DNA of 64,000 nt from Patescibacteria group bacterium (lineage in GTDB: Bacteria > Patescibacteriota > Patescibacteriia > Patescibacteriales > UBA12465): positions 37,883 to 101,882 of the forward strand of contig JBAZJK010000001.1 in assembly GCA_041651355.1 (NCBI GenBank). The letters are read 5' to 3'. The position numbers were made by a program, and so were the translations under genes. Numbering within the stretch: position 1 is the first letter of the stretch; every line of letters begins with the position of its first letter. The notes beneath the pieces are model-generated. The model did no database searches and had not been told where the DNA came from. It was given only the letters and a program-made list of their open reading frames with translations. Of the stretch, positions 33,726 through 64,000 are shown piece by piece.

Positions 33726-34127
33726 ATGAAATTATTCATCTACACTGATGGTGGCGCCCGTGGCAATCCTGGTCCGGCGGGCATCGGAGCCGTGATTTAC
33801 GATGAAGACAAAAAAGTCATAGCCGAGGTGTCGGAATATTTGGGGGTAGCAACTAATAATCAGGCGGAGTATAAAGCCGTGATTGCCGCCTTAAAGAAAG
33901 CCAAAGAGATGGGTGGCACAGAGCTATCTTTTTATTTAGATAGCGAGTTAGCTGTGAAGCAGCTAAACCGGGAGTATAAAGTAAAAAACAAAGACTTGGC
34001 GCCTTTGTTTTTAGAGGTATATAATTTAAGCTTAAGTTTTAAGAAAGTCTCTTTTTCTCATATCCGCCGCGAGTTCAATCAGGTGGCAGATAGATTGGCT
34101 AATGAGGCGATGGATAGGGGAAATTAA
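33726..34127 (+). CDS. rnhA: Ribonuclease HI
   Basis: TDGGARGNPGPAGIGAVI, NNQAEYKAVIAAL and NQVADRLAN cover the DEDD catalytic residues. Confidence 0.85.
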   Translation: MKLFIYTDGGARGNPGPAGIGAVIYDEDKKVIAEVSEYLGVATNNQAEYKAVIAALKKAKEMGGTELSFYLDSELAVKQLNREYKVKNKDLAPLFLEVYNLSLSFKKVSFSHIRREFNQVADRLANEAMDRGN

Positions 34128-35284
34128 TATCTTTTAGTATATAATCTGCCATCAGAATGACTGTTGGCATATTTTTTTACTGTTTCAAAACTCATTGAGC
34201 TACTAACACAGTTGCCTGGTTCTTTTCCTGAACCTCCGTGGCAGTCCCCGAATAATCCTTTGCCCATATAGATAATAACATGCCCACTGCCTTTTTTATT
34301 ATTTTTTGGTGCCCAACCAACCATATCTCCTGGTTTGAGGCTTTCTAGCTTTTGGTCCCAAACTTGTTGGTCTTTAAATATGTCAGCGCTTCGGCCACCG
34401 GTATCTCGACCAGTGGCACATTTAAAAACAAAGGAAGAAAAGCTGGAACAATCTAAGTAAACGAAATTTCCTGGCGCTGATTGTCCTCGCAATTTCTGGC
34501 TGTAAGTAACTTTACCTTTTGCCTTTTTTACAATCTGCTCCACTGAATCCTGATTACAGTTTACACCCAACACAGAGGCTATACCGGTTACATCAAGTGA
34601 TATTCCTGGCGACTCGTTATCGCCTTCAAGCTCTATTTCCTCTATGTATCCCAGAGACAGGGCTTTGAATTTTGTCAGGTCAGGATTGATCTGGTAGAGG
34701 ATTACATAAGAACAGAGAAGAAGCACCAAGCCGCTAATACTGCCGATGATTAGTTCTTTGGATTGGGTAATTTTGGAAGCGTCGCCACCAGAAACCAGCC
34801 AGATTATACCCCCAATCATCAAAACTATGACGGCTGCAATGCCGGCGATGCCGACGGCGTATTTATAAACACCCCCGATATATTCACCTATCCAATTAAC
34901 CTTGCAGACCGGAGGCGTGCCGGTACATTTGGCTTCGGAGAAATTAGCCATGCCCGGTATTTTTATGGCTAATTCCGGGATTTTGAATTTAGGCTGTTCT
35001 GCTTCTGGCGCCGTCGCATTATTTGTTAGTTGGCCATTGGTAAGAGAAAAATTTCCGATATCACAGCAACATTCTGCTTTTATTAATCCGCATGAACCTT
35101 TGCCGGTGCAAGCGCCAAGGCCGCCAACAGTTCCTCCTAAACTATAGCAAAAATCAGCTGTTGTTTTATGTATTGAGAGATCATTGCATTGCCAGCTACA
35201 GGTTGCAGCTGAAGCAACACTAGATAGGGATAAGCCCAATATGCAGAAAAATAGTATCATTATTGTCTTTTTACCATTTTTCAT
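34124..35284 (-). CDS. Exported Cys-rich protein with a VirB2/TrbC-pilin-like two-helix membrane module fused to a C-terminal NlpC/P60 peptidoglycan endopeptidase domain
   Basis: Four parts are visible: a signal peptide (ILFFCILGLSLSSVASA), a Cys-rich N-domain (CSWQC...ECCCD), a hydrophobic hairpin (AVGIAGIAAVIVLMIGGIIWLVSGGDASK...GSISGLVLLLCSYVILYQINPDL), and NlpC/P60 motifs YLDCSSFSSFVF (catalytic Cys) and GHVIIYMG (His). The start overlaps the porB stop by 4 nt. Confidence 0.65.
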   Translation of the reverse strand: MKNGKKTIMILFFCILGLSLSSVASAATCSWQCNDLSIHKTTADFCYSLGGTVGGLGACTGKGSCGLIKAECCCDIGNFSLTNGQLTNNATAPEAEQPKFKIPELAIKIPGMANFSEAKCTGTPPVCKVNWIGEYIGGVYKYAVGIAGIAAVIVLMIGGIIWLVSGGDASKITQSKELIIGSISGLVLLLCSYVILYQINPDLTKFKALSLGYIEEIELEGDNESPGISLDVTGIASVLGVNCNQDSVEQIVKKAKGKVTYSQKLRGQSAPGNFVYLDCSSFSSFVFKCATGRDTGGRSADIFKDQQVWDQKLESLKPGDMVGWAPKNNKKGSGHVIIYMGKGLFGDCHGGSGKEPGNCVSSSMSFETVKKYANSHSDGRLYTKRY

Positions 35285-36153
35285 ATTTTGTATTTCCTGA
35301 TATTCTCATCCGCTAGGCTTTGGATATATTTTATATCATCCGGTTTTAAATGTTTAAATCTTCCTTGGGCTTTTAAATATTCTTCTACGGGAATAGGCTT
35401 AGATTCTTTCTTGATGCTAGAAGAGCTTAATTTCCCCTCCGTATACTCTAGTAAAGGATAGAGGGCGGTCTGAACGGCTAGTTTACCCATTTTGACTGCC
35501 TCATCATTGTTTATCTTCCAACCGGGCATACAAGGAGAAAGAATCTGGATATAGCTCGGGCCTTGGATGGCCAGGGCTTTTTTAATTTTGTTAGTAATAT
35601 CATCGGGAAAGCCAGCCGTGCTTTGGGCTACATAATTTAGACCATGAGCCAAGGCAACCGCGAGCATGTCTTTTTTTCTTTGCGCTGAACCGATGGATTT
35701 TAGACCATCAGGAGTGGTGGTAGTGCTAGCTCCATAGGGAGTGGCTCCGGAAGCCTGGATGCCGGTGTTGGAATAGGCTTCGGTATCATAACAAATGTAT
35801 AGGATATTTTCTCCTCTTTCCCACATACCGCTGATTAAGCCGAAGCCAATATCAAAAGTGCCGCCATCACCAGCTTGTACGACTACTTTTGTTTTATTAT
35901 CTCCCTTCTTATTCAAAGCGGCCAAGATGCCGGAAGCGACCGAAGCAGCATTCTCGAATAAAGAGTGAATCCAGGGTAGGCCCCAGGCGCTTTGCGGATA
36001 TGAGGTTGTAGTTACTTCAAGACAACCAGTAGCATTGGCGATAATAACATCTTTATTTAAAGCTCTCATGACCGCCTGAGCGGCGACCATCTGGCCGCAA
36101 CCCGCGCAGGCATTATGGCCAGGCGAGAGGAAGGAATTATTTTTATTTAACAT
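35281..36153 (-). CDS. porB: Pyruvate:ferredoxin (2-oxoacid) oxidoreductase, beta (TPP-binding) subunit
   Basis: CAGCGQ, GDGGTFDIGFG (TPP/Mg motif) and SPCMPGW. Confidence 0.9.
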   Translation of the reverse strand: MLNKNNSFLSPGHNACAGCGQMVAAQAVMRALNKDVIIANATGCLEVTTTSYPQSAWGLPWIHSLFENAASVASGILAALNKKGDNKTKVVVQAGDGGTFDIGFGLISGMWERGENILYICYDTEAYSNTGIQASGATPYGASTTTTPDGLKSIGSAQRKKDMLAVALAHGLNYVAQSTAGFPDDITNKIKKALAIQGPSYIQILSPCMPGWKINNDEAVKMGKLAVQTALYPLLEYTEGKLSSSSIKKESKPIPVEEYLKAQGRFKHLKPDDIKYIQSLADENIRKYKI

Positions 36154-36174
36154 ATATCTCTGTCCCCTAGTTTT

Positions 36175-37287
36175 TTATTGGCAAATATTTGGTCCATTTA
36201 ATTTAAGCTTACAGTCGCCATGACTTTCAGAACCGCATTTACAAGTGAGGTTATTATCAGAATTACAGCATTGGTAGTTTTCCCAGTTTGCGCTGCCACA
36301 CTCAGAACCAAAAAGTTTGCAACGTTGACAGGTTTTATTTAGGCAATAACCCGCGATATTTCTGAATAAGATTTGTTCGCCGTTAACATTTGCAAACTCA
36401 TCAAAAGCACAAGAAGATTCATCTGCTAGCTGAGCGCAAGCCTCAGCCGCGCTGACAATAGTTTCTGGTGGTTCCGGTTGGGCGGCCGCAGTTTCAGCTT
36501 CGGCGCATTTATAAGCGCTGTTTTCTGGTACTTTAACGTATTGAGTTCCGCAGGCAATGCAGTCGCCACCGTGAGGTGCACCAGTATTCCCCGAGCCCAT
36601 TGAACTCCCCATATAGGTTGCCCATTTGCAATAGACGTATGAATAATCTGCTGGAGACTGCTGGCAACAACAAATCTGTTGTCCGGGAACTTCAGCTTTT
36701 TTAACCGAACATTTAGCTAGGCCAGCCTCTATTTTATTCATGCATTTATTATCTTTCCAGGCACACATAGCTATCGCGTTACAGGTTGAAGAGGCCACGG
36801 CGTCTTCGCATGATACGGCCGAATCTATGTTAAGGTTCTTTTCTTTAATCTGGGTGACATTTTGTATCTTGAATTTAAGAAGATCGGGATTAATCGTATT
36901 AAGTAGTATCCAAGAGCAGAGCAGTAAGGCCAGGCCAGTGATGCTGCCACCTATCAGGTCTTTGGCTTGCCCGACTTTACCGGGGTTGCCTCCGGATGTC
37001 AGCCAAATGATGCCGGCAATCATCAAGACGATTACCGCTACGATACCGACAATCGCTAAAGCATAGTTATAAAAAGCGGCCACATATTCTCCTATGTACA
37101 CAGTGCTACTTGTAGTCATGGATCTTGGCGCGTCATTTTGGAAATTGGAGCCAGGGATGCTAATAGAGGTTTTGAGTTCTATCGGATCGGCTGCGCTTGC
37201 TGGGTTGGGAGAAATTAATAAATTAAAGGTTCCTATAATTACAGTAAATAGAACCAAAAGAAAAACAATTGTTGTTTTTTTCTTCAT
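36175..37287 (-). CDS. Exported protein with a VirB2/TrbC-pilin-like two-helix module and a large Cys-rich C-terminal ectodomain
   Basis: A signal/anchor is followed by the module YIGEYVAAFYNYALAIVGIVAVIVLMIAGIIWLTSGGNPGK...GSITGLALLLCSWILLNTINPDLLKF, which is paralogous to the module in the 34124..35284 product. About 230 aa with many Cys residues follow (ICCCQQ, CIACG, CQRCKLFGSECG, CKCGSESHGDC). Confidence 0.55.
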   Translation of the reverse strand: MKKKTTIVFLLVLFTVIIGTFNLLISPNPASAADPIELKTSISIPGSNFQNDAPRSMTTSSTVYIGEYVAAFYNYALAIVGIVAVIVLMIAGIIWLTSGGNPGKVGQAKDLIGGSITGLALLLCSWILLNTINPDLLKFKIQNVTQIKEKNLNIDSAVSCEDAVASSTCNAIAMCAWKDNKCMNKIEAGLAKCSVKKAEVPGQQICCCQQSPADYSYVYCKWATYMGSSMGSGNTGAPHGGDCIACGTQYVKVPENSAYKCAEAETAAAQPEPPETIVSAAEACAQLADESSCAFDEFANVNGEQILFRNIAGYCLNKTCQRCKLFGSECGSANWENYQCCNSDNNLTCKCGSESHGDCKLKLNGPNICQ

Positions 37288-37298
37288 ATATTAAATAA

Positions 37299-38465: not shown

Positions 38466-38469
38466 AATT

Positions 38470-38751
38470 TTAATAGTCTTTTTCCATACTGATAGCCTTG
38501 ACCGGGCATTCAGCCGCGCAGAGGGCACAGCCTTTACAATAATCGTAATCAGTAATCGGGATGTTCTTATCGTTTCTTTTAACCATTGTGATACAAGCTT
38601 CAGGGCAGACCTTAGAACACAAAGAACAGCCAATACATTTCTTGTAATCCGTCTGCGGCCGAAAACTGCGCCAGGGGCCGGTTTTATTATCCAGGGATGA
38701 ATTCGCTTTGACGGCGGGAATTTTGTTTATTTTTTTGGTTTTGGTCTTCAT
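38470..38751 (-). CDS. porD: Pyruvate:ferredoxin oxidoreductase, delta (2x[4Fe-4S] ferredoxin) subunit
   Basis: CIGCSLCSKVCP and CKGCALCAAECP. Confidence 0.9.
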   Translation of the reverse strand: MKTKTKKINKIPAVKANSSLDNKTGPWRSFRPQTDYKKCIGCSLCSKVCPEACITMVKRNDKNIPITDYDYCKGCALCAAECPVKAISMEKDY

Positions 38752-39320
38752 ATGGAAAAAGCTTTAAGGGCGGCTTGGATATTCTGGCTGACAACTGCCT
38801 GGCCTTTGCCGCTGAATTTATTTTCCATAGCTTTTTTGATCGAGGCTAGGCTAATCAGCTGGCTATAGCGAGCCAAGGCTCCTAACAGGGGAGCGTTAGC
38901 CAGATTTTTCTTGAATATTTCTATAGCGATAGCGGTGGCCGGAGTGATAAATATGTTTTTTTCCGTAATCAACCCTTTGTTTTTGCTAGATTTTTTAATA
39001 ATTTGGTATATTTCTTTAGCGCTTAGGGAGCTGTTAACTATTATTTTAGTATTTTTCTTAGCTCCAACTAGAACGTCTACGCTGTTAAGCAGGCTGTCAT
39101 CTTGGATAATCAGGATATCCGGTTCGTAAATCTGTTCCCGATTGTTTATCGGTTTATCATCCAGGCGGACGAAGGATTGGATAGGGGCGCCACTCCTTTC
39201 TACACCGAAAAGAGGGAAGGCTTGGGCATAGCGTCCTTCATTAAAAGCGGCTAAAGCAATCAGCTCGGCCGCCGTGACTACGCCCTGGCCGCCGCGGCCA
39301 TGGATGCGGATTTGGATCAT
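38748..39320 (-). CDS. porG: Pyruvate:ferredoxin oxidoreductase, gamma subunit
   Basis: IRIHGRGGQGVVTAAELIALAA. The 190-aa length fits, and there is a 4-nt overlap with porD. Confidence 0.9.
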   Translation of the reverse strand: MIQIRIHGRGGQGVVTAAELIALAAFNEGRYAQAFPLFGVERSGAPIQSFVRLDDKPINNREQIYEPDILIIQDDSLLNSVDVLVGAKKNTKIIVNSSLSAKEIYQIIKKSSKNKGLITEKNIFITPATAIAIEIFKKNLANAPLLGALARYSQLISLASIKKAMENKFSGKGQAVVSQNIQAALKAFSI

Positions 39321-39325
39321 AATTT

Positions 39326-40075
39326 TTACTGGTTTAGATATTTTTCTATTAAGGCGTTAAACTGTTCTTTTTCCATATGTCCGGTGACGCGATGGCGGCC
39401 GATGAACCAAGTCGGTGTTTTTTCTACTCCCAAAGCCTCACCATCTTCCAGATTAGCCCGGATATTGTCTAAATAGGCTTTGTCGTTGAGACAAGCGCTA
39501 AAATCGTCAGTGTTAAGTTTGAGGTCTAGGGCTAGGGACCTGAGATTGATGTCTAAATCGGCTTCGCTAGCCTTGAGACTGTCTTGGTTGGCAAATAGAG
39601 CGTCATGCATCTCCCAAAATTTTCCTTGGGCGCCAGCACACCAGGCTGCTTGCGATAAATCGATCGATTTTTCGCTGATGACCGGGAAATCGCGGAAGAT
39701 AATCTTGACTTGGTCCTTATATTTTTCTCCGGCTTGCCTGATTACTTCTGATAGTTGTTTGCAATAAGGGCAAGCGAAGTCAGAGAATTCAACAATAATC
39801 AGCTTAGGGCTTCCGGCACCTAAGTAATAATTATTTGCGCCATATAAGGTGGCCTCGGCTTGTTTTTGTAAGATTAAATTCTGGCTGTCAGCTCTTTCTT
39901 GGTTGATTCGTTTAGCTTCGTTTATGACATACCAAAAAGACAGGGCCGCAATTATCATAATCAACGCCAAAATCCCGATTAGTACCTTTCCCCAGGGTTT
40001 TTTATACCAAGGCCTCAGGGTTTTTTGGTGGCGAGATTTCATCTCCGCCAGCTTGATTCTATCTTCTAAGCTCAT
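39326..40075 (-). CDS. Membrane-anchored DsbA-family thiol:disulfide oxidoreductase
   Basis: An N-terminal TM helix (VLIGILALIMIIAALSFWYVI) and a thioredoxin-fold CxxC active site (FSDFACPYCKQ). The gene ends 5 nt upstream of porG. Confidence 0.8.
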   Translation of the reverse strand: MSLEDRIKLAEMKSRHQKTLRPWYKKPWGKVLIGILALIMIIAALSFWYVINEAKRINQERADSQNLILQKQAEATLYGANNYYLGAGSPKLIIVEFSDFACPYCKQLSEVIRQAGEKYKDQVKIIFRDFPVISEKSIDLSQAAWCAGAQGKFWEMHDALFANQDSLKASEADLDINLRSLALDLKLNTDDFSACLNDKAYLDNIRANLEDGEALGVEKTPTWFIGRHRVTGHMEKEQFNALIEKYLNQ

Positions 40076-40142
40076 TGAAAAATAAGTTAAGATTAACTAT
40101 ACTTTTATTATAACATAAAGCCTGAAAAAAGTAATGAAATAT

Positions 40143-40910: not shown

Positions 40911-40928
40911 AAATTACAATTTTTTTGT

Positions 40929-44530: not shown

Positions 44531-45169
44531 ATGTTGGCCAGTAGTCAATCCGATAAAAATATTTCCCAGACCGCTAATGATTCTAAGGCTCTTCCGCCGC
44601 AACAACGCTGGGCCGTTATTTTGTTATCAGCCCTTGGCTTGTCAGTCATAATATTTTGGGCTTGGCAGTTTAAATCGCGGGTTAGCGGTCCCTTCCAGAT
44701 ACCCGAGAATAAGGATAAATATGCGGCTATCGCCAGTTCTACTGATTTGACTAAAGATACGGATGGCGATGGCCTAACCGATTATGAAGAAAGCTCTGTT
44801 TACGAGACCTCTCCTTATTTAGCTGATTCCGATAGCGATAATATAAATGATGGCCAAGAGATAAAGCAGGGAACTAATCCAAATTGCCCAACTGGGCAGA
44901 CCTGCGGCCTAGAAGCGATTGCGCCTCCTTCAGCCAGCTCTTCTAATATCTTGGGTGAAACGACCGCCTCGGAAACCGATGTGACTTTAGAAGAAAAATT
45001 AGTTAACGGCGATATCAGTCCGGCTGAGTTGCGCCAGCTCCTCTTAGATAATGGTGCCGACCAAGCATCTTTAAGCCAGATAAGCGACCAAGATTTGTTG
45101 CAATTCTATCAAGAAACCCTTCAATCTCAGATGAACGCTAGTTCGTCTCTGCCCGCGTTATCACAATAA
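44531..45169 (+). CDS. Membrane-anchored protein with thrombospondin type-3-like Ca-binding repeats
   Basis: One TM helix (WAVILLSALGLSVIIFWAW) followed by DTDGDGLTDYEE...DSDSDNINDGQE. It ends 15 nt before the giant ORF. Confidence 0.5.
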   Translation: MLASSQSDKNISQTANDSKALPPQQRWAVILLSALGLSVIIFWAWQFKSRVSGPFQIPENKDKYAAIASSTDLTKDTDGDGLTDYEESSVYETSPYLADSDSDNINDGQEIKQGTNPNCPTGQTCGLEAIAPPSASSSNILGETTASETDVTLEEKLVNGDISPAELRQLLLDNGADQASLSQISDQDLLQFYQETLQSQMNASSSLPALSQ

Positions 45170-45184: not shown

Positions 45185-48100
45185 ATGTCTCAAGATTTTA
45201 AAAGTCAGCCGAAAAATCCAAATCGTCAGGCTTTTTTTAGTTTTAGAAAAAAGATTGTCAGCGCCATATTCCTCTTAGCCTTCGGTGCCTTGGTTTTTGG
45301 CGTTCAGAATGTCAGGGCGCAACTAGTCACTACCGACCCTGGGTCTACAGCCGCGACGGTTGTCCAAACGAGTAAGGATATAATGAAAACAGTAAAGGAT
45401 ACTTGGTGGAATAAAATGGTAAAAATTTTGACCAGAGCCGGCTCGAAGGCTTTTAATGTAACTTTAAGAAGGGCTCTTAATAAAGTTGCCTATGATTATG
45501 CCACTGCTTTAGGTTCTGGAGATTGGGGGCAACAACCTTTATTCCAAGCCAGGAATTGGGGTGATTATTTTTCTGATATTGGAGATGAAGCCGCTGGTGA
45601 ATTCATTGAAGGCTTCGCCAATGATTTTAGTGAAGAGAACGCTAAACTAACCAAAGAACTTAACACCCAAGAAGTTAATGCTCATAATGATAGGGCTAAT
45701 TGTCTTAAGGCCTGCGAAGAATCAGCAGGCAGCGGAGCTTTGATGGGGGGAGATTACAGCCAACTTTTAGCTCAGTGCCAATCAGGCTGTATGTCTGCAT
45801 ATGATGCCACCATGGGGCCAATCAAAGAGAAAGAAAAAAGCTTGGGACAAAATAATCGCCCAATCGCTACCTGCCAACCGTCCTCGATTGATGTCAAACT
45901 GAAGATCGCTTTAGGTTTAGCTCAGGTTAACCGTCCCGCCGCCCCCAACTGTTCGGCTACAGAAATGATTAATAATTGGGGTAAGTTAGCTGATAACTAT
46001 CCTGATAAGTTAAAAAGTTTCAGTAGTCCAGACTATTTAGCTAAAACTTTGCCCAACATCTTTAATCCGGTTTCTAATGATTTAGGCATCGCCTTGACTC
46101 TGAGAAGTGATTTGTTGAGCAAGCAGGCTGAAAAAGATGCAAACGCTAAATTACAAGCCTCTATCGGTCAAGGTTATACGGATAAGCGCAATATCGCTGG
46201 CAATTTAATCAGTATTCCTAACAAGTCACGCATGGATACCGAAGCTTCTGGGCAGATGTATGCCGAAAATTTTGGCCAGTATACTGGCGACGCTTTCATT
46301 GATGCGGCCAATATTTTTATCAACCAAGCCGCTTTGACAGCTTGGAATAAATTGATGGCTTCTTTAGCTGAAAAGGCTAAAAAAGGCAATGATAAAGATA
46401 AAGATGACCCTTGTGCATCAAACCTCAACTCTGAAGCTTGTTTATTCTGTACTAAAAATCCCAATGATCCAAGCTGTCGAAAAACTACCAAGGTAGCTGG
46501 ATGCAACCCTCTCACCGACCCAAGTTGTGCTCCGGTCAGCTATGCCGAAGGCAATGTCCAGGAAGCGGCCTCGGTTTTAATCAAGCCTAGCTTTACCACT
46601 CAGGCTGATTATGATATTTTGCCCAGTTTGAGCACTTGTGTCGATCCGAATAACCCTGGTCCGACCGAGTGCGTTATTGATGAGCGCTTCTTGCAGGCGG
46701 TAACGGAGAAAAAGACTGTGGCTGAAGCCATAAAAGATAATTTTTTGAATAAAACCTGGCTCTTAAGCGGTAACAGCAAGGACTATAACAGTTATAATAT
46801 TAGGAACATCAGTATTTTAAGAAAATATAGAATTTTACCGGTCGGCTGGGAGGAAGCAGCTAACAAGATTGCTAAATTAAATAAGAAAGCCAGTTTAATG
46901 GATTTGGTTTCTTGCTTTAACCCTAATGATGAATATAACGAATTTGGCAGCCAGTTCGATGTCCGCGACCAAGCTTGGTGTGAAGGTTTAGTTGATCCTA
47001 ACTGGGTTTTGAAAGCACCTTTGAATTATTGTCGTAAACAAGGATCCGGCGGTCAGATTAGGGATTTACAGATCGTTCCTGGGCAATCAGGCCAGGGAGC
47101 TATTTCTGATCTGCCCAGTTCTCTGATTGTCAGCCGGGCGGACGAATATTGTGCCGATGAACAGTCATGCATCAAAGAAAAGGCCGATGGCAGCTGTGAG
47201 GCCTATGGCTATTGTAATACAGAAAAACGGACCTGGTCTTTCGGCCAAGATGCTTGCGAACCTATCTATAATACTTGCCAGACTTTTACCAAGGCTAACG
47301 GATCTTCGGTCTCTTATCTAAAAAACACCTTGGATTATGGTACCTGTAATGCTGATAATGCTGGTTGCCAAGCCTATTCTTGGTTTGGTTCATATAACTC
47401 AAGCAACGGACAAGTAGCTTGGGATATCGCTAAGCAGATTTACTTAAATGATAAGGCCGGCGTATGTTCGGCTAATGAAGAGGGCTGTACGGCTCTATAT
47501 CGGGTAAAACCGAGTTGGGGTTCTAATTTAATCATGAATGCTAATTTTGATAATGACCAAATTGGTGATACTTCTGATGATTTGGCGCAATGTACTACCT
47601 TGGGATCTCATTTAAATGATTGGTATTTTAGGAGCATGAGCTCTTCAGCTAATAATTGCAACGCCGAGATTTTTGACGCTTCAGGCTTGTCAGTTAATGG
47701 CAAGGCCCTTAAGCTTTCAGCCCAGTCTGGAGATATCGGTATCTATTCCGGAGATAATCATTCTTTACTGCCCGATGATTTTTCTTTCTTGAGCGGGCAA
47801 TCATATACATTTAGCGCTGATGTCTATCTCGTTTCTAGCAGCGGCGTCAGTCTCTGGATTGGGGATGATGCAGCTATTCCTAGCAATGCCGCTTCCACCA
47901 GCCAAAAAGGCTCTTGGCAACACCTTAGTTTCACCCGGAGCGCTCTGGATAATATTAATGATCCGGAGTTCGCGGTCAGGGGTGAAGCGGAATCCGGTTC
48001 GGTGGAATTTTATATCAAGAATCTTAAGTTCGAATTAAGTGATTTTGATACCGGCTACAGGTTGTATGGCGCCTATAAAGTCTATGAAAAAGTTTTGCCT

Positions 48101-53651: not shown

Positions 53652-53677
53652 AAACGCCCCAAAATTGGGGCGTTTTT
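53652..53677 (+). terminator. Rho-independent terminator after the giant gene
   Basis: aaaCGCCCC aaaatt GGGGCGttttt. Confidence 0.75.
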
Positions 53678-53731
53678 GTCTTTACAAAGGCTTTTTTTGC
53701 CTGTATGATGGTCTTATAAATATTTAAACAT

Positions 53732-55039
53732 ATGTCCAATCATCCAAGAGTTTTAATAAAAGACTTAAGCCAAAATTTCGAGAAAACTGTATGCATCAAG
53801 GGTTTTGTTGATAGCCTGCGCGATCAAAAGAAATTCGTTTTTTTAATCCTAAGAGATGGAAACGGCCAGGCACAGATTTTCTGCGATAAAGATGGTAAAT
53901 TTGATGAAATATTAGAAAAAATTACTCCAGAATCAACTTTGGAAATAACGGGAAAAGTTGTTAAAAATGAGTCGGTTAAGCTTAATGGCCTAGAGTTGAT
54001 TCCGGAAGAGATAAAGATTCTGAGTTTAGCGGCCACTCCTTTGCCGATCGATGCCGCTACTAACCTGAACGATCGTCTGGATTGGCGTTTTTTAGACTTG
54101 CGTCGAGCTGAGAACCTCTTAATTTTTAAACTCCAAACTTTGGCTGAAAAAGCGATGCGTGATTTTTGGCAGGAAAGAGGCTTTATTGAAATCCATTCCC
54201 CCAAGTTGATGGGAGCGGCTAGCGAATCAGGCGCTGAATTATTTGAAGTAAAATATTTTGACGGCAAAGCCTATTTGGCCCAGAGTCCCCAGTTCTATAA
54301 ACAAATGGCAATGGCAGCTGGGTTTGATAAGGTATTTGAAATCGGTCCGGTCTTTAGGGCTAACCCCTCCTTCACCTCCCGCCATGATACGGAATTCACT
54401 AGCATTGACGTGGAAATCGCCTGGATAGATTCGGTAGAAGACGTTATGAAACTGGAGGAGGAATGGCTAAATTATATTTTTTCTCGGATAAAGGAAGGGC
54501 TAGGGGAAGAGATCAAAGCCTTATTTAATATTGATATCGAAGTGCCCAGTTTGCCTTTCCCAAGATTAAAGATGAAGGAAGCTAGAGAAATAGTCACTAA
54601 GTCCGGACATAAGATCGGTCCTGACTACGAGGGGGAACTAGACCCTGAAGGTGAAAAGATTGTAGCCGAACACGTCAAGAAAGAATTAAACCACGATTTT
54701 GTTTTTGTGACCGATTATCCAGCAGCTATCCGGGCTTTCTATCATATGCGGGACGAGGATAATAAGACGACTTTAAGTTTCGACTTACTTTATAAAGGTT
54801 TAGAGGTGACTACGGGAGCGCAAAGGGAACATCGCTTAGATGTTCTAACCAGGCAAGCCGAGGAAAAGGGAATTTCTCCGGCTGCCGTCCAATTCTATCT
54901 TGATTTCTTCAAGTTCGGCATGCCACCGCACGGCGGTTTCGGTTTCGGTTTGACTAGACTGATAATGTTAATGCTTAACCTAAAGAACGTCCGGGAGGTC
55001 ACTTATATTTATCGCGGTCCTAACCGTTTATTTCCTTGA
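53732..55039 (+). CDS. aspS: Aspartyl-tRNA synthetase, archaeal/eukaryal type (short, ~435 aa)
   Basis: An N-terminal OB fold, LAQSPQFYKQ, motif 2 FRANPSFTSRHDTEFTSIDVE and motif 3 PPHGGFGFGLTRL. It lacks the bacterial-type insertion domain and ends with TGA. Confidence 0.85.
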   Translation: MSNHPRVLIKDLSQNFEKTVCIKGFVDSLRDQKKFVFLILRDGNGQAQIFCDKDGKFDEILEKITPESTLEITGKVVKNESVKLNGLELIPEEIKILSLAATPLPIDAATNLNDRLDWRFLDLRRAENLLIFKLQTLAEKAMRDFWQERGFIEIHSPKLMGAASESGAELFEVKYFDGKAYLAQSPQFYKQMAMAAGFDKVFEIGPVFRANPSFTSRHDTEFTSIDVEIAWIDSVEDVMKLEEEWLNYIFSRIKEGLGEEIKALFNIDIEVPSLPFPRLKMKEAREIVTKSGHKIGPDYEGELDPEGEKIVAEHVKKELNHDFVFVTDYPAAIRAFYHMRDEDNKTTLSFDLLYKGLEVTTGAQREHRLDVLTRQAEEKGISPAAVQFYLDFFKFGMPPHGGFGFGLTRLIMLMLNLKNVREVTYIYRGPNRLFP

Positions 55040-55063
55040 TCATATTAAGTCAGTAGTATTTAT

Positions 55064-55096
55064 AAAAGAGGCTATAAGCAGCCTCTTTTATTTTTG
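55064..55096 (+). terminator. Rho-independent terminator after aspS
   Basis: Stem aagaggct / agcctctt with a 6-nt loop, followed by ttatttttg. Confidence 0.6.
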
Positions 55097-55204: not shown

Positions 55205-55852
55205 ATGTCCATTGACGAACAACTTTTAGCCGCTTCTAACGAGTCGGAATCCGCTGGTCAGCAAGATACATCTAGCGATCCAGGCGCTTTTCGTGAAGAT
55301 AAAAGAAATTCAACTCCTAACGGACCAGATGGTAACACGGGTGATAGCGGCCAGAGTTTTAGGATGGCTAAGCAAGCCGCTAAGAACCAGGCGAAAGATC
55401 AGGATGAGTCCAGTGGCCTTAAAGGGGCAGCCATGGATAAGGCAACCGCTCCTGCTAGAAAAGCGACTGGTTCTTGCTTGAAACAAGCTTGGTTGAACGC
55501 TCCGGAAACCTTTGGCTGTACTCTGGCCTGGGTTAATATCCATGTTTTTTTGCGCCAGGTATTGGGTAAGAAATTATTCGGCCCCTTGGGCTCAGAATGG
55601 TTGCCTGGGGAAACGCCGTTTGCGGGAGCTGATAAAACCGGGGCGAGTAAAAGCTTAGAAAAAGGGATGCAATTAGGGGAGGGGTGCTTGTTGGTAATAC
55701 TTGATCTTGGCTGCCTAATAATACTCATAGTGACGATCGGAGGCATAGCCGCTGTCCTTTATCTTTTAACCCACCCGGGAGAGGTTATAGGTGCAGTTCT
55801 AAATGCGGTTTGGGATCAGGTTACTTCTTGGGTGTCCGGTATATTTTCATAG
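55205..55852 (+). CDS. Hypothetical protein with a disordered polar N-terminal half and a C-terminal TM helix; first gene of the T4SS-like cluster
   Basis: An ORF with a low-complexity N-terminus and the hydrophobic segment CLLVILDLGCLIILIVTIGGIAAVLYLL. I recognise no family. Confidence 0.4.
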   Translation: MSIDEQLLAASNESESAGQQDTSSDPGAFREDKRNSTPNGPDGNTGDSGQSFRMAKQAAKNQAKDQDESSGLKGAAMDKATAPARKATGSCLKQAWLNAPETFGCTLAWVNIHVFLRQVLGKKLFGPLGSEWLPGETPFAGADKTGASKSLEKGMQLGEGCLLVILDLGCLIILIVTIGGIAAVLYLLTHPGEVIGAVLNAVWDQVTSWVSGIFS

Positions 55853-58426: not shown

Positions 58427-58436
58427 TTGATTATTT

Positions 58437-59630: not shown

Positions 59631-59654
59631 TTAGCAGCTTAATATCATTTAGAA

Positions 59655-59679
59655 ACGAGACCACGAGGTCTCGTTTTTT
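59655..59679 (+). terminator. Rho-independent terminator inside the T4SS-like cluster
   Basis: ACGAGACC acga GGTCTCGT followed by ttttt. Confidence 0.75.
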
Positions 59680-59778
59680 GCTAAACTTTAGCTTCTTCGT
59701 AAAGAGCTAGGCTCTCTTTCCTCTTTTTGGCAAAATGTGCTAAAATAAAACCAGAATAAATTATTTTTTGCCGGTTTC

Positions 59779-61101
59779 ATGTTCGATTATTTGCAAAAAT
59801 TTAACGCCCTGCCTAAGGATTTGCGCGATAAGATTTCTTCCCCTGCCGTTATGGCCGCGATTTCCGCTTTAGAAAGCAAATATGGGGTTGATTTGGCTAT
59901 GACCGTGATGCGGGTGATGATAAAAACCCTTAGTTTGGAGAATTTGCCTTTCCATCTAGCTAGTGAATTCGGCCTTAATCAAACCCAGGCAGAAAGCTTG
60001 AACCGTGATCTTAAAGACCAGGTTTTTTTAGTTGTTGCTACCTATTTAGGCCTCAATTCAGATTCATCAGCTCTTGATTTAAACCAAAACTTAGAGCGGA
60101 TCGTTAAAGAGTCAGGAATCAGGTTCACGAGTACCGATGCTTTGGCTCGCTTCAAACAAATCCTTAACACTTATCTGCGTGGTGTCAGAACCAAGATTGA
60201 TACTCGTAATTCTTTAGCCAAGAGCGTTGTCTCTGGCGGCCTTAATTTGGACACTTTTACCATTGATAAGGTTTTTAAGATTTGCGACGAGCTAACCAAA
60301 GCCTTGCCGGCTCCGGAAATCGTCAAGCCGTCTGCCTCGCCAGCTTTAGATAGGTTGATCGTGGCTGATGCCGTTAAGGATAAAACAGCCATCACCCATG
60401 AATCAGAATATAATCTTAAAGACCTGGCCGCTAAAGGAAAATTAAAACCGTTAGGCAATTTGGATACTAGTCACGAGCTTCCTTCAGGGGAAATGAAAGA
60501 CCTGCCGGCTCCGCCTAGTATTGATGCCGAAGCCGCCGCGATTGCCGATTTAGCTTCAGCTAAGATCACTGAAGCCTTATCCAAGATCAACCCGGTGCCT
60601 AGCACTCCATCTCCGGAACTTGCTCCTAAGGTAGAGGCTCCAGCTCCGGCAGCCACGCTGAGACAGGAAGCAGCCCCGAAACCATTAGTTAAGTCGCCCC
60701 TGCCGGCGGCGGCTAATTTGCGCCCGGCGGCTGATCCCTCCCGGCCCAAAGTCGCCGATATCCGACCGATGCCCAAGATCATGGGTCCGATTGAAGAATT
60801 ACAATTTTTGGATCTAGTTAATTTCCGTCGCTTGGGCGTGAATCCCAGTGATATCACTAGCAAGATTTATACCAAGATCAGATTGCTGGAAAAGACTGGC
60901 TATGACCAGATGATTCAAGGGGTAGTGGCTTGGCGGAAGGGTATTATTAATCGTGTCTATTTGAAGATGTGCCAAGAGGCTTTCGCTAAAGGAATGCCAC
61001 TTAAGGAGATTATTGCCAAGCGGCAGTCCGAAAACCGTGAATATTTGACTTGGGATGAAATCAACGCGATCGTCGACCTTAATAAAAAGCTCATGTTCTA
61101 A
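59779..61101 (+). CDS. Hypothetical protein with a Pro/Ala-rich linker (N-terminal domain paralogous to the 58437 product)
   Basis: A 440-aa ORF. The N-terminus is MFDYLQKFNALPKDLRDKISSPAVMAAISALESKYGVD..., with a central region of the form PAPPSIDAEAAA...APAPAATLRQEAAPKP. Confidence 0.5.
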   Translation: MFDYLQKFNALPKDLRDKISSPAVMAAISALESKYGVDLAMTVMRVMIKTLSLENLPFHLASEFGLNQTQAESLNRDLKDQVFLVVATYLGLNSDSSALDLNQNLERIVKESGIRFTSTDALARFKQILNTYLRGVRTKIDTRNSLAKSVVSGGLNLDTFTIDKVFKICDELTKALPAPEIVKPSASPALDRLIVADAVKDKTAITHESEYNLKDLAAKGKLKPLGNLDTSHELPSGEMKDLPAPPSIDAEAAAIADLASAKITEALSKINPVPSTPSPELAPKVEAPAPAATLRQEAAPKPLVKSPLPAAANLRPAADPSRPKVADIRPMPKIMGPIEELQFLDLVNFRRLGVNPSDITSKIYTKIRLLEKTGYDQMIQGVVAWRKGIINRVYLKMCQEAFAKGMPLKEIIAKRQSENREYLTWDEINAIVDLNKKLMF

Positions 61102-61104
61102 TAT

Positions 61105-61575
61105 ATGCAGCAATTTACCGTTCCTCAATTCATTGACGTGGAAAGCAAGATTATCGGTCCAATCACTACCCGGCAATTTTTAATCTTTCTGGCCACCGCG
61201 GCTTTAATCGGAATCTTCTATAAATTATTCGATTTTGCCCTTTTCTTGGCAACCGGTCTGCCAGTCCTAGGTTTGGCTATCCTTTTTGCCTTCGTGAAGG
61301 TTAATGGCCAGCCTTTCCATCTTTTTGTTTTAAGCTTGGTAAAGACCTTGCGGCGGCCCAACACGAGGATTTGGAATAAGCAGACGACCGTTCAAGAGGT
61401 TCCAGAATTCACCCCGATCATCAAGAATGAATACCAGGCTCAATTCAAGCCGGCCTTTAAGAGCTCTCATTTAGCCGATTTATCTTTAGTGGTAGACACC
61501 CAGGGCAGATATAAAGGGCAAGAAAATGCGCCTAATCAAAGCTTGGCCGAGAAAAAAGATTTTAATAATAATTAA
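61105..61575 (+). CDS. PrgI-family (VirB3-like) small membrane protein
   Basis: The N-terminus FTVPQFIDVESKIIGPITTRQFLIFLATAALIG is followed by a second TM helix (FLATGLPVLGLAILFAFV). This matches my recollection of the PrgI family signature. Confidence 0.7.
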   Translation: MQQFTVPQFIDVESKIIGPITTRQFLIFLATAALIGIFYKLFDFALFLATGLPVLGLAILFAFVKVNGQPFHLFVLSLVKTLRRPNTRIWNKQTTVQEVPEFTPIIKNEYQAQFKPAFKSSHLADLSLVVDTQGRYKGQENAPNQSLAEKKDFNNN

Positions 61576-61584
61576 GTTTAAAAT

Positions 61585-62259
61585 ATGGCTGATAAGGCAG
61601 CTAGTAAAATTAGCGCTTCCACCCAAGATTTCCTAGATATCGCTGAAATAAAGGAGAACACCGTGGTGATGAAAGATGGCACCTTGCGGGCGGTCTTATT
61701 GGCGTCCAGCATCAATTTTGCTTTAAAAAGCGAAGATGAACAGAATGCGGTAGTTGATTCCTATATCCGTTTCCTGAATAACCTATCTTTTACCCTGCAA
61801 ATCGTCATTCAATCACGCGAGTTAGACATTGATAATTATCTTGAGTATCTCAGAACCAAAGAGAAGGAGCAGACTAACAAGCTGCTCAAGCTCCAAACCG
61901 GGGAATACATCGAATATATCAAGGAATTAACTTCTTTGGGCAAGATCATGAATAAGCGTTTTTACATTATCGTCCCCTATAACGCCTTGTCTGATAAGAA
62001 GAAGAATTTTATGGCCCAGTTAGGCGAAGCCTTGAAGCCAGCTACTTCCATCAAATTAAAGGAGAAGACTTTCTTGCGCTATCAGGAGATGCTTAATCGG
62101 CGGATAGATAGCGTGGCCGGCGGTTTAGAGGCCATGGGTATTAATGTGATTAGATTAGATACTCAGAGTCTGATTGAATTATATTACCGCACTTATAACC
62201 CGGAGACCGCTAAGAACCAAGCTTTGGGCGAAATCGACAAGATGCGCGTCGAGTCTTAA
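61585..62259 (+). CDS. Stand-alone protein resembling the N-terminal domain of Gram-positive-type VirB4 ATPases
   Basis: STQDFLDIAEIKENTVVMKDGTLRAVLLASSINFALKSEDEQNAVVDSYIRFLNNLSFTLQIVIQS resembles the N-terminal pattern I recall from Tn916 Orf16/TraE-type proteins (..DINYQLA..D..AIF..fLN.fd..i..Q). It has no Walker motifs. Confidence 0.4.
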   Translation: MADKAASKISASTQDFLDIAEIKENTVVMKDGTLRAVLLASSINFALKSEDEQNAVVDSYIRFLNNLSFTLQIVIQSRELDIDNYLEYLRTKEKEQTNKLLKLQTGEYIEYIKELTSLGKIMNKRFYIIVPYNALSDKKKNFMAQLGEALKPATSIKLKEKTFLRYQEMLNRRIDSVAGGLEAMGINVIRLDTQSLIELYYRTYNPETAKNQALGEIDKMRVES

Positions 62260-62277
62260 TTAATCCAAGGGAAAATT

Positions 62278-64000
62278 ATGATAAATTTCAAAAAATCAGA
62301 TTCTCCAAATAACCGCTTGACCCTAAATAGTAGTTTAGGTGCTCGGCCGGATAGTCCGGCGCCAGTGGAAGCTAACCCGGAGCTAACGCGGGAGATTATT
62401 GAGGAGGAAAAAGCTTTCCGGCGAGGGGTTATTTCTGTCCGGGACATCATTTCTCCGGCGAGCATGAAAGTCGAGCCGACGCTTTTGCGTTTAGGAGACA
62501 AATTCGTCCGGACGATCTTTATCATCAATTATCCTCGTTATATCAGTGTCGGTTGGTTCGCTCCGGTCATTAATCTTAATTTGACCTTCGATATCTCCAT
62601 GTTTTTCTATCCTGTTTCCAGCGCAATTATTCTGAAACAGCTGAAGAACAAAGTCGGTATCTTAGAGGCACAGATTGCTGGCGATGCCGAGAAGGGCGCT
62701 GCTCGTGATCCTTTGCGGGAAACTGCCTTGCGCGATATTGAATCCTTGCGCGACGCCTTGACCCAGGGAACGGAAAAGTTTTTCCAATTCGCCCTGTATG
62801 TTACTTTATATAGCGATAGTACGGAGGAATTAGATCGTATGTCCGATCAGGTTGAAGATATTTTCGGTTCACGACTAGTTTTCTCCCGGCGAGTTTATTT
62901 CCAAGCCGAACAGGGCTTTAATTCTACTTTACCCTTGGGAAACGACGAGATGTCCATTACTTTTAACATGAACTCTTCGCCGGTCGCTTCATCTTTCCCC
63001 TTCATTTCTAGCGAGCTAACCAGCGATCGCGGCATCTTGTATGGTATCAATCGCCACAATAACAGCTTGATTCTATTCGACCGTTTTAGCCTACAGAACG
63101 CTAATTCAGTCGTTTTTGCCACCTCGGGTGCCGGCAAGAGCTATGCTATCAAATTGGAAGTTCTCCGTTCTTTGATGCTCGGAACCGACATCATTATCAT
63201 CGATCCTGAACATGAGTATAAATATCTATCTGAAGCGGTCGGCGGCACCTATATCAACATTTCGCTGTCTTCGGAGAATAAGATCAATCCTTTTGATTTG
63301 CCACGCTCGATCGGAGCTGAATCAAAGCCGAAAGATATCATCCGGAGCGCTGTCATAACCCTAAAAGGTTTGGTTAGACTTATGATCGGCAACCTTAGCT
63401 ATGATGAAGATTCTATCGTTGACCGCGCTTTGCTGGAAACCTATGCCAAGAAAGATATTACGCCAGATTCAGATTTATCTAAGATTGAACCGCCGGTAAT
63501 GTCGGATTTCGAACAGGTTTTAGAGGGCATGGAAGGTGGCGCTGATTTAGCCTTACGCCTCAAGAAATATACCGAAGGTACTTTTTCCGGCTTGTTGAAT
63601 AATTTTACTAACGTCGAGATGAATAATCAATTGGTCTGTTTCTCGGTGCGTGATTTGGAAGATGAGCTCCGGCCTCTGGCTATATATACGATTATCAATT
63701 ATATCTGGAATATTGTCCGTAGCGAGACTAAGAAGCGCATCTTGGTAATTGATGAGGCTTGGTGGATGATGCAGCATGAAGATAGCGCTAAGTTCGTCTT
63801 CGCCTTAGTCAAGCGTTGCCGCAAATATTATTTGGGCGTGACCACGATTACTCAGGACGTTAATGACTTCTTAACCTCGCCCTATGGCCAAGCCATCGTG
63901 ACCAACTCTTCTTTGCAGATTCTGCTCAAACAATCGCCGGCCGCCATCGACCTAGTCAAGAAAACTTTCATCCTGACGGAAGGCGAGAAATATCTGCTAC
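62278..64000 (+). CDS. virB4: Type IV secretion VirB4/TraE/PrgJ-family ATPase; its 3' end runs off the window
   Basis: Not in the ORF track because it has no stop in the window. ATG 62278 stays open to 64000. Walker A is VVFATSGAGKSYAIK and Walker B is ILVIDEAWWMM, followed by TTITQDVNDF. Confidence 0.85.
   Translation, partial: MINFKKSDSPNNRLTLNSSLGARPDSPAPVEANPELTREIIEEEKAFRRGVISVRDIISPASMKVEPTLLRLGDKFVRTIFIINYPRYISVGWFAPVINLNLTFDISMFFYPVSSAIILKQLKNKVGILEAQIAGDAEKGAARDPLRETALRDIESLRDALTQGTEKFFQFALYVTLYSDSTEELDRMSDQVEDIFGSRLVFSRRVYFQAEQGFNSTLPLGNDEMSITFNMNSSPVASSFPFISSELTSDRGILYGINRHNNSLILFDRFSLQNANSVVFATSGAGKSYAIKLEVLRSLMLGTDIIIIDPEHEYKYLSEAVGGTYINISLSSENKINPFDLPRSIGAESKPKDIIRSAVITLKGLVRLMIGNLSYDEDSIVDRALLETYAKKDITPDSDLSKIEPPVMSDFEQVLEGMEGGADLALRLKKYTEGTFSGLLNNFTNVEMNNQLVCFSVRDLEDELRPLAIYTIINYIWNIVRSETKKRILVIDEAWWMMQHEDSAKFVFALVKRCRKYYLGVTTITQDVNDFLTSPYGQAIVTNSSLQILLKQSPAAIDLVKKTFILTEGEKYLL

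Follow-up and report, generated by a model that had tools for sequence, protein, structure and literature searches.

A probable Falkowbacteria-type version of the Patescibacteria type IV secretion system with candidate pilin modules bearing variable cysteine-rich heads

Gene content of the locus

We analyzed a 64,000-nucleotide stretch of DNA (hereafter the window) from the genome of a Patescibacteria group bacterium (assembly GCA_041651355.1, contig JBAZJK010000001.1, positions 37,883 to 101,882), whose second half combines a type IV secretion system (T4SS) gene cluster with two genes for exported proteins containing a VirB2-like pilin module, a gene for a membrane-anchored thiol oxidase, and a gene for a giant cysteine-rich protein. 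NCBI protein records for the window carry the name “Patescibacteria group bacterium” and locus tags WC441_00395-00435. The host probably belongs to a Falkowbacteria-type lineage (NCBI phylum Candidatus Falkowiibacteriota), which we infer to fall within GTDB class ABY1.

Open reading frames (ORFs) of at least 110 amino acids (aa) in the window were scanned against Pfam and NCBIfam, and families were called at Pfam's curated thresholds; the 8 kb past its end were also covered, giving 72 kb together. On the minus strand, the order of transcription is dsbA, porG, porD, porA, a gene for a 370-aa pilin-module protein, porB, and a gene for a 386-aa pilin-module protein. On the plus strand, xth, leuS, ksgA, a gene for a protein with thrombospondin type 3 (TSP3) repeats, the giant gene, and aspS are followed by the T4SS cluster at 55.2–64 kb, which comprises p215, a VirB6-like gene, p397, p440, and the genes for PrgI, a TrsD-like protein, and VirB4 (Table 1). 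Past the window, the source contig continues with the rest of virB4, a gene for a 203-aa transmembrane (TM) protein, radA, recG, and a serine recombinase gene. GC content is mostly even along the window but dips mildly, to 0.37, within the T4SS cluster (58–60 kb), and an Rfam search of the window returned no RNA families. A first-pass annotation, made from the sequence alone, had proposed a dispersed, disulfide-dependent surface appendage at this locus; the VirB4, PrgI, two VirB2-like Cys-rich proteins, and DsbA that it named are all present at or above the Pfam curated thresholds.

Table 1. Features of the pilin-module, giant-protein, and T4SS regions, in window coordinates
Feature	Position	Strand	Supporting detail
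Terminator-like hairpin after the last gene of the seven-gene unit	33984..34012	-	12-pair stem and T-rich tail
386-aa exported protein (signal peptide, Cys-rich N-terminal head, pilin module, C-terminal NlpC/P60)	34124..35284	-	PF18895 34.2 bits; PF00877 25.6 bits
porB, thiamine pyrophosphate-binding beta subunit of pyruvate/2-oxoacid:ferredoxin oxidoreductase	35281..36153	-	PF02775; sits between both pilin-module genes
370-aa exported protein (signal peptide ASA/AD, cleavage at the slash; pilin module ~40–140; 230-aa C-terminal head)	36175..37287	-	PF18895 35.1 bits
porA, alpha subunit, 388 aa	37299..38465	-	POR_N, PFOR_II
porD, 2x[4Fe-4S] ferredoxin-like delta subunit	38470..38751	-	Fer4 families
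porG, gamma subunit	38748..39320	-	PF01558 135 bits
DsbA/MdbA-like thiol-disulfide oxidoreductase, membrane-anchored, first gene of the unit	39326..40075	-	Thioredoxin_4 94.5 bits; DSBA 63.8 bits
212-aa TM-anchored protein with two TSP3 Ca-binding repeats	44531..45169	+	PF18884 30.9 bits; DTDGDG and DSDSDN motifs
Giant 2,813-aa exported protein, 104 Cys	45185..53626	+	Conserved helical N-terminal domain of ~400 aa, CBM_4_9-like modules, variable C-terminal 500 aa
Terminator-like hairpin after the giant gene	53652..53675	+	10-pair stem, 6 GC pairs, T tail
aspS, housekeeping, outside the system	53732..55039	+	tRNA-synt_2 274 bits; same position in L092
Terminator-like hairpin after aspS	55062-55091	+	Terminator/promoter scan
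p215, 215 aa, first gene of the cluster	55205..55852	+	Low-complexity N-terminus, TM region 154–199; 46% identical in L092, same place
VirB6-like candidate (“extended” type), 853 aa	55865..58426	+	Multiple predicted TM segments in 1–325, long hydrophilic C-terminal half
p397, soluble, 397 aa	58437..59630	+	55% identical in L092
p440, soluble, 440 aa, Pro/Ala-rich middle	59779..61101	+	64% identical in L092
PrgI (VirB3-like) membrane protein	61105..61575	+	PF12666 34.6 bits (cutoff 27); 81% identical in L092
TrsD/TraC-like protein, homologous to the VirB4 N-terminal part	61585..62259	+	NF041427 E 5.5e-7; NF045975 E 1.7e-11; PF26593 on record; 94% in L092
VirB4 ATPase, 634 aa in full, cut by the window end	62278..64000	+	P-loop_TraG 98.5 bits; AAA_10

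Pilin modules and their cysteine-rich heads

Both pilin-module proteins exceed the PF18895 (T4SS_pilin) cutoff of 26.6 bits, and the C-terminal domain of the 386-aa protein exceeds the NlpC/P60 cutoff of 23 bits; NCBI names the former protein “pilin” (370 aa) and the latter “NlpC/P60 family protein” (386 aa). The two modules share 58% identity (E 5e-31), and the remainders of the two proteins are dissimilar. Hydropathy predicts that each protein has a signal peptide and two helices, joined by a short polar loop into a hairpin whose ends both lie outside the membrane, and an AlphaFold2 model of the 370-aa protein places helices at residues 62–96 and 101–131 (predicted local distance difference test, pLDDT, 74–87). 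With total lengths of 370 and 386 aa and added domains of 100–230 aa, these proteins include a pilin module without being typical pilins, which measure ~70–120 aa when mature.

The added domains are rich in cysteine. The C-terminal head of the 370-aa protein holds 24 Cys. In the 386-aa protein, 10 lie in the exported N-terminal part (eight in the head, including a CCC motif, and two just ahead of the first TM helix) and four in the C-terminal domain in addition to the catalytic Cys; the even counts in the exported extensions would fit paired disulfides. A search of 5.8 billion protein sequences returned 39 homologues of the pilin protein, every one of which (39/39) bears Cys-rich extensions with 8–38 Cys, N- and/or C-terminal of the module. 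Several carry wall-active domains (NlpC/P60, Amidase_2, SLT, Glucosaminidase, and Peptidase_C39_2), one carries a dockerin, and PF18896 also occurs. When the homologues are aligned, the module is strongly conserved, with W94, G99, K108, N132, and P133 of the hairpin nearly invariant, whereas the heads are not alignable across subclades.

Nine related loci (L005, L006, L007, L008, L009, L011, L093, L094, and L095) were compared with the window. L009 is a named Candidatus Falkowbacteria metagenome-assembled genome (MAG); L007 and L008 carry an identical pilin protein on two different contigs, and L007 ends within porA, so that the upstream genes lie outside it. Pilin modules are 42–90% identical across these loci, as against 15–31% for the heads outside the closest relatives (L005, plus L006 and L008 for the C-terminal head), which bears out the variable disulfide-rich heads of the earlier proposal. 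For the 370-aa protein, the module is 50–75% identical in relatives, and the head is 41–64% identical in the three closest loci and 15–21% in five farther ones. On these comparisons, the ~100-aa pilin hairpin is a predicted conserved stalk that carries hypervariable Cys-rich heads.

A short Cys module that closes with CCC (for example, ECCCD, ICCCQ, VCCCN, and YGCCCGD) recurs in many heads and is present at residues 29–74 of the 386-aa protein, at residues 160–208 of the 370-aa protein, and in several homologues. This CCC module could represent a small disulfide-rich domain, so far uncatalogued, that shuffles from one side of the hairpin to the other.

A further homologue, P0011, is encoded in a MAG labelled Bacteroidota (L010, positions 1–20978) and has an N-terminal Cys-rich head and a module 65% identical to that in the window. 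The surrounding region resembles a mobile element, with two TrwB/VirD4-like ATPase genes, a serine recombinase, three tyrosine recombinases, ArdC, and RadC. Because P0011 adjoins the TrwB/VirD4-like ATPase genes, the pilin family is, by genomic context, independently tied to T4SS-type machinery. The adjoining set KAP-NTPase/QatB/QueC/TatD resembles the Qat defense system.

A local hidden Markov model of the pilin module found only the two genes described here in the window and its flanks (72 kb), and none in the T4SS cluster. They lie at -17 and -19 coding sequences (CDS) from virB4, the 386-aa gene being 19 CDS and 27 kb away. Earlier described as dispersed, the system does have its pilin genes outside the cluster, but both fall inside the neighborhood of ±20 CDS that a survey of Patescibacteria takes as near virB4 (PMC12102498).

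A pilin-tethered wall hydrolase

One of the VirB2-like proteins had been said to bring its own peptidoglycan hydrolase, and the 386-aa protein indeed combines its NlpC/P60 match with the catalytic residues Cys279 (in DCSSF) and His335 (in GHVIIY); the domain is C-terminal to the second TM helix and hence outside the membrane. The C-terminal domain of this second pilin gene differs among loci: it is NlpC/P60 in the window and L005; VanY/M15 in L006, L008, and L095 and, by motif, probably also in L011 and L093; Peptidase_C39_2 in L094; and none in L009. The predicted hydrolase domain has therefore been replaced non-homologously, in place, between lineages, and because such replacement occurs at a fixed position, it points to a pilin-tethered wall hydrolase as the selected function. 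VirB1 homologues of Patescibacteria usually lie away from virB4, and the domain make-up of monoderm VirB1 has been described (PMC12102498).

The dsbA-por-pilin unit

The two pilin-module genes belong to an operon-like unit of seven genes, together with the subunits of a pyruvate/2-oxoacid:ferredoxin oxidoreductase (PFOR) and the DsbA/MdbA-like oxidase. Intergenic gaps within the unit are -4 to 21 bp, including a 4-bp overlap of porB with the downstream 386-aa pilin gene. A consensus-match scan found a sole minus-strand terminator-like site in 33.9–40.1 kb, and because this lies right behind the last gene and none lies inside the unit, the arrangement is consistent with co-transcription of the oxidase and pilin genes, as the first-pass annotation had supposed. 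A longer porA ORF (37299–38633, with a TTG start and 56 additional codons, overlapping porD) is probably unused, as gene callers and orthologues favor the ATG at 38465. The oxidase has an N-terminal TM segment at residues 26–54, CPYC at 102, and TPTW at 220, the latter being assigned as the putative cis-Pro site.

The order dsbA-porG-porD-porA-pilin-porB-pilin is unchanged in 9/9 related loci (L007 being partial), with junctions of a few bases, and dsbA heads the unit in all except the truncated L007 (8/9). Genes flanking the unit also recur in these loci. Where measured, identity to the window is 91, 68, 61, and 65% for LeuRS and 81–92% for PorB.

An ADP-forming acetyl-CoA synthetase gene (window 23686–25758, plus strand) lies 8 kb from the PFOR unit and also flanks the block in L094. 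PFOR and this enzyme together would give a fermentation module leading from pyruvate through acetyl-CoA to acetate plus ATP.

The T4SS core cluster

VirB4 has intact Walker A (GAGKS) and Walker B (VIDEAW) motifs and is 94% identical in L092, a single locus obtained from a metagenome scan with the VirB6-like protein. Ahead of it, the TrsD-like gene, which the first-pass annotation had missed, is separated from the PrgI gene by 9 bp and from virB4 by 18 bp; the NF041427 match of its product lies under NCBIfam's own cutoff. A PrgI orthologue is also encoded on L005's own 67.9-kb contig. Neither a relaxase nor a coupling protein is encoded among the window ORFs of at least 110 aa or in the 8 kb beyond, in agreement with the earlier statement that no conjugation-specific genes are visible.

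The 853-aa protein is a candidate VirB6, so labelled for its position, its TM segments and hydrophilic tail, and the conservation of its TM domain, which is ~85% identical in L092 and 43% identical in the distant L096, while the tail diverges. The 203-aa protein encoded right behind virB4, with a TM segment and a globular domain, is a positional VirB8/PrgL-like candidate without a family match. No Pfam or NCBIfam family matches p215, p397, or p440. The last two share weakly similar N-terminal regions of ~95 aa (24% identity, E 3e-4) and may be diverged paralogues.

A 569-aa serine recombinase ORF (L003, 18405–20114, minus strand) lies ~6 kb past virB4, its 3′ end overlapping a tRNA-Ser gene (18435–18522, plus strand). 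An integrated element may have its border here, separated from the T4SS by radA and recG.

The giant protein and its TSP3 partner

The TSP3 gene lies 15 bp upstream of the giant gene and is found upstream of it in every related locus that reaches it (n = 7). The first-pass annotation had placed a giant Cys-rich, multi-CBM-like protein and a Ca-binding partner upstream of the cluster; both are present, but the repeated carbohydrate-binding modules come down to a single CBM_4_9 match above threshold (residues 1273–1354; whole-protein score 33.9 bits), a second match at ~780–933 falling below it (19.6 bits, E 1.2e-3).

Between the giant protein and its L092 orthologue, 87/98 Cys are conserved, whereas the non-Cys positions are 58% identical. 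Residues 301–400 show 84% identity, which falls to 20–45% after residue 2300, in the last 500 residues; such a gradient would be expected if a surface protein were anchored at its base and variable toward its distal end.

Residues 1–450, used as the query of an exhaustive HMMER search, retrieved at least 591 clusters (50% identity) at E ≤ 1e-3, and 310 at E ≤ 1e-10. Nearly all matches are N-termini of 2,400–3,200-aa proteins, and the named members, the most distant inspected one included, are all “hypothetical protein” from Candidatus Falkowbacteria. The exhaustive search was needed, as a word-indexed homologue search with the same N-terminus (single sequence, then profile) had yielded one fragment only.

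A reading of the giant N-terminus as a VirB5/TraI-like tip adhesin was considered and rejected. DUF4141, the family of a Bacteroides conjugative-transposon protein encoded beside traJ and near traG, matches residues 30–71 at 23.7–25.5 bits, under its cutoff of 30, and does so only in the window protein and its closest orthologue (2/5 and 1/25 family members). Searches of NCBIfam and PDB sequences gave no matches, and the AlphaFold2 model (pLDDT 61.5) is all-helical and fits generic bundles only.

Neighborhood of the giant gene and the T4SS cluster

L092 reproduces the gene order of the window, giant-aspS-p215-VirB6-like-p397-p440-PrgI-TrsD-VirB4, with identities from 46% (p215) through 56% (giant) up to 94% (TrsD and VirB4). 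In L096, where the giant protein is 26% and KsgA 45% identical, the order is ksgA, TSP3, a toxin-antitoxin pair, and giant, followed by ~8 kb of other genes and tRNAs and then the VirB6-like gene. In each of the three lineages in which the arrangement is visible, the giant gene thus has ksgA on one side and the T4SS cluster on the other, and on this positional evidence the giant-T4SS neighborhood appears to be old within the lineage. A genome scan anchored on AspRS returned 80 unrelated genomes (best identity 61%), none of which has T4SS genes nearby.

The toxin-antitoxin pair of L096 (9278–9986) is of the nucleotidyltransferase/HEPN kind, and a HigB toxin gene with an adjacent, antitoxin-like helix-turn-helix gene lies further downstream.

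Other genes in the window

A possible O-glycosylation pair had been proposed at 25.8–28.2 kb. These genes encode a glycosyltransferase family 2 (GT2) enzyme and a multi-TM tetratricopeptide repeat (TPR) protein; PMT_2 is matched only by orthologues of the latter, and the pair has no visible link with the pilins. The GT2 and TPR genes and that of MurJ (window 25736–29859, plus strand) are kept as a trio in most relatives, which looks like envelope-glycan or wall synthesis.

A 668-aa secreted protein encoded at 10669–12675 (plus strand), between ftsK and a Mur ligase gene, has internal repeats, a Por_Secre_tail match (the C-terminal sorting domain of type IX secretion, 41.9 bits), and a weak Ig_7 match; it is odd for a presumably monoderm genome, with no type IX secretion system in view. 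At 2116–4759 (plus strand), a glycosyltransferase family 5 starch/glycogen synthase gene adjoins that of a glycoside hydrolase family 57 enzyme, which suggests a glycogen-type storage metabolism in a small genome.

Relation to known systems

In a survey from 2025, VirB4 was present in 2,417 of 3,035 Patescibacteria genomes and formed a clade nested in the monoderm MPF_FATA class, accompanied by PrgI, TrsD, VirB6, and PF18895-type VirB2-like pilins, with relaxases almost absent (PMC12102498). The Patescibacteria genomes that encode such pilins mostly encode VirB4 too, and in more than half a pilin gene is near virB4; radA, recG, and comF are typical virB4 neighbors in class ABY1, and KsgA is a frequent one (PMC12102498). 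Both the radA/recG and the KsgA patterns are present at the window locus. In Southlakia epibionticum, transposon sequencing showed that the T4SS, including its pilin array, is essential for epibiotic growth (PMC10633639; reviewed in PMC12857230), and the function of the Patescibacteria T4SS has been called “completely unknown” (PMC11665869).

The first-pass view that such a system had not been characterized therefore has to be given up: relaxase-less Patescibacteria T4SSs with VirB2-like pilin arrays are already on record (PMC12102498, PMC12857230, PMC10633639). The core T4SS is known, and the locus is a lineage-specific version of it. What seems undescribed are the head-bearing pilin modules, the hydrolase swapping, the embedding among por and dsbA genes, and the giant family, of which we found no mention in the published descriptions consulted here; among the rows searched in the supplementary tables of PMC12102498, no POR, TSP3, or thioredoxin families appear near virB4.

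With the Patescibacteria-clade T4SS, as represented by S. epibionticum SEML1_0006-0019, the locus shares VirB4, PrgI/VirB3, TrsD, a polytopic candidate for the VirB6-type protein, and PF18895 pilins, as well as a chromosomal site, radA/recG neighbors, and the lack of a relaxase or coupling protein nearby. It differs in that the pilin genes lie outside the cluster, in a por operon with dsbA, that the pilins are 370–386 aa long with Cys-rich heads and in one case fused to a hydrolase, and that a giant Cys-rich protein flanks the cluster. Compared with MPF_FATA systems (pCF10 Prg/Pcf, pGO1 Trs, and Tn916/CTn2), the locus has in common PrgI, TrsD, VirB4, a membrane-anchored NlpC/P60-type hydrolase (like CD419/Orf14), and no outer-membrane core, but it is without a relaxase, a type IV coupling protein (T4CP), or a PrgB-type adhesin, and it has VirB2-like pilin modules, which MPF_FATA does not.

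The pilin hairpin itself resembles diderm VirB2/TrbC pilins and the pilin-like protein of the Mycoplasma integrative and conjugative element (NF045849) in that a signal peptide precedes two hydrophobic helices linked by a short basic loop, with both hairpin ends outside the membrane; here, by contrast, it bears 100–230-aa added domains. Bartonella and Anaplasma VirB2 paralogue arrays likewise contain multiple divergent pilin paralogues, suggesting exposed-surface variation, but the variation at this locus lies in appended Cys-rich domains and between lineages, not in tandem amplification within a genome. VirB1, PrgK, and TraG of pIP501 are membrane-tethered peptidoglycan hydrolases genetically associated with T4SS components, as is the predicted hydrolase here, whose tether is instead a pilin module, whose catalytic domain varies (NlpC/P60, VanY/M15, C39_2), and whose gene lies 19 CDS from virB4.

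A proposal from 2018 holds that an MdbA-like oxidase enriched in the candidate phyla radiation folds pilins, with VKOR as its partner (10.1101/335083). The MdbA/DsbA pathway of pilin folding in Actinomyces and Corynebacterium also relies on a TM-anchored thioredoxin-fold CxxC oxidase in a monoderm with exported Cys-rich surface proteins; the oxidase at our locus differs in sharing an operon-like unit with PFOR and with pilin genes of the T4SS type, rather than sortase-type or type IV ones, and in having no VKOR or DsbB nearby.

Proposed working of the system

Our preferred reading, to which we assign a probability of roughly 0.55, is that the locus is a Falkowbacteria-type version of the Patescibacteria-clade, MPF_FATA-related T4SS, equipped with head-bearing pilin modules, a tethered hydrolase, an oxidase, and the giant/TSP3 pair. 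The pilin-module proteins would be exported by Sec, their heads oxidized by the co-encoded membrane-anchored DsbA/MdbA-like enzyme, and their hairpins retained as a pool of pilins within the membrane. The VirB4/VirB3/VirB6 machine would then polymerize the hairpins or dock them at the channel, leaving the variable heads to face the partner cell, while the tethered hydrolase would open the wall locally in a VirB1-like role. TSP3 and the giant protein would form a separately transcribed, Ca-dependent, adhesin-type pair beside the machine and contact the partner cell, the conserved N-terminus of the giant protein being proximal and its variable C-terminus distal. Nucleic acid is a candidate T4SS substrate, because radA and recG adjoin virB4.

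Several observations weigh against this reading. A fold search of the pilin model against PDB returned nothing at E ≤ 0.001, and whole-model confidence is low; more generally, the pilin and giant N-terminal structure models are both of low confidence (pLDDT 61.5) and without a meaningful fold match. The VirB6-like protein of the first-pass annotation, for which position, TM segments, and a conserved TM domain speak, has no match in Pfam, in NCBIfam (at relaxed E for the TM domain), among PDB sequences, or on plasmids (tblastn). No DsbB or VKOR re-oxidizing partner was found among the window ORFs by Pfam and NCBIfam, and it may lie elsewhere in the 882-kb genome. By our own geometric estimate, a head of 25 kDa per subunit would crowd a VirB2-type filament, and such proteins may never polymerize; service as a minor pilin, base, or anchor and assembly into a homopolymeric fiber are therefore equally plausible. 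Strong terminator-like hairpins followed by promoter-like sites (one of them at 53681–53709, behind the giant-gene hairpin) divide the giant gene from aspS and aspS from the T4SS cluster, so that the three appear to be transcribed separately. Finally, the entire 40-kb block, housekeeping genes included, is syntenic in relatives.

Alternative explanations

The last two points bear most directly on the rival that survives best, an explanation we think unlikely though deserving serious weight: an ordinary T4SS, the por/dsbA/pilin unit, and the giant/TSP3 pair may merely share a syntenic, streamlined, origin-proximal region without a common function. Interleaved with them are xth, leuS, ksgA, aspS, rnhA, recJ, lepA, and murJ, equally syntenic in relatives, and in L096 unrelated genes and tRNAs come between the giant and VirB6-like genes. 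Because the whole 40-kb block is syntenic, conserved order alone does not prove selection, and the interleaving of por genes may be inherited order; the coupling to fermentation through PFOR and the links to the giant protein and to glycosylation were for the same reason overstated in the first-pass annotation, being drawn from gene order within that block. Against a set of unlinked neighbors stands the nature of the pilin family itself: PF18895 is a T4SS pilin family that the 2025 survey mostly finds in genomes with VirB4 and, in more than half, near virB4; a member lies beside T4CP-like genes in L010; and, with no other pilin gene in or near the T4SS cluster, the two described here are its sole candidates.

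The same hairpin could also be only a two-pass membrane anchor that displays wall enzymes and Cys-rich binding domains independently of the T4SS, with no fiber. The proteins are three to five times the length of the module (71 positions in the Pfam profile; ~100 aa here) and bear enzymes, their genes lie outside the T4SS cluster, and the non-homologous hydrolase swap points to a tethered wall enzyme as the selected feature. Wall hydrolases of monoderm T4SSs, such as PrgK and TraG, are TM-anchored. The hairpin is, however, conserved far beyond what a generic anchor needs (W94, G99, K108, N132, and P133), retains the short basic loop typical of VirB2-type pilins, and belongs to a family with members beside T4CP-like genes, and we regard an anchor without a fiber as rather improbable.

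Uptake of DNA would give the machine another role: like Helicobacter ComB, the T4SS would import DNA or nucleotides from the partner, the heads and the giant protein would provide contact, and RadA and RecG would process the strands. The position of radA two genes after virB4 (behind the 203-aa TM protein gene), with recG next, suits this idea, as do the typical ABY1 neighbors comF, recG, and radA of the survey and the lack of a relaxase or coupling protein, and a PNAS perspective lists the T4SS as a candidate route of nucleotide acquisition. But radA and recG are housekeeping genes whose adjacency may be incidental, and the 72 kb scanned contain no ComEC- or ComEA-type gene; import thus seems to us a rather improbable function.

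An active or decaying conjugative or integrative element is hardly credible: VirB4, PrgI, and TrsD are homologous to monoderm conjugation genes and a serine recombinase gene overlaps tRNA-Ser 6 kb past virB4, but relaxase and T4CP are missing, the recombinase is on the far side of radA/recG, GC is mostly even apart from the dip in the cluster, the chromosomal context recurs in relatives (VirB4 being 94% identical in L092, the sole relative compared), and the Patescibacteria VirB4 clade is vertically inherited within classes (PMC12102498).

Implications

The preferred reading, a lineage-specific T4SS with its own contact parts, can be carried further, to a version that we offer as speculative and not very likely. 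The VirB2-like hairpin would then be a T4SS-dependent display scaffold carrying variable, disulfide-knotted heads and interchangeable hydrolases on or at the base of a monoderm T4SS pilus, the supply of these subunits would be hard-wired to fermentation by the placing of their genes, along with a dedicated oxidase, within the PFOR operon, and the giant family, with its at least 591 clusters, would serve to recognize hosts as the system's own Ca-dependent adhesin.

The role of the essential, relaxase-less Patescibacteria T4SS is an acknowledged open question (PMC11665869, PMC12857230). If the links described here are only syntenic, the locus is a further instance of a known system. Otherwise, it suggests what the parts at the contact end may be, namely head-bearing pilin modules, an exchangeable tethered hydrolase, a co-operonic oxidase, and a giant Cys-rich family by the cluster, and these give testable targets in head-host binding, hydrolase specificity, and oxidase dependence. 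The combination of a conserved stalk and a variable head may also serve as a signature by which uncultivated lineages can be surveyed, at the sequence level, for determinants of host range.

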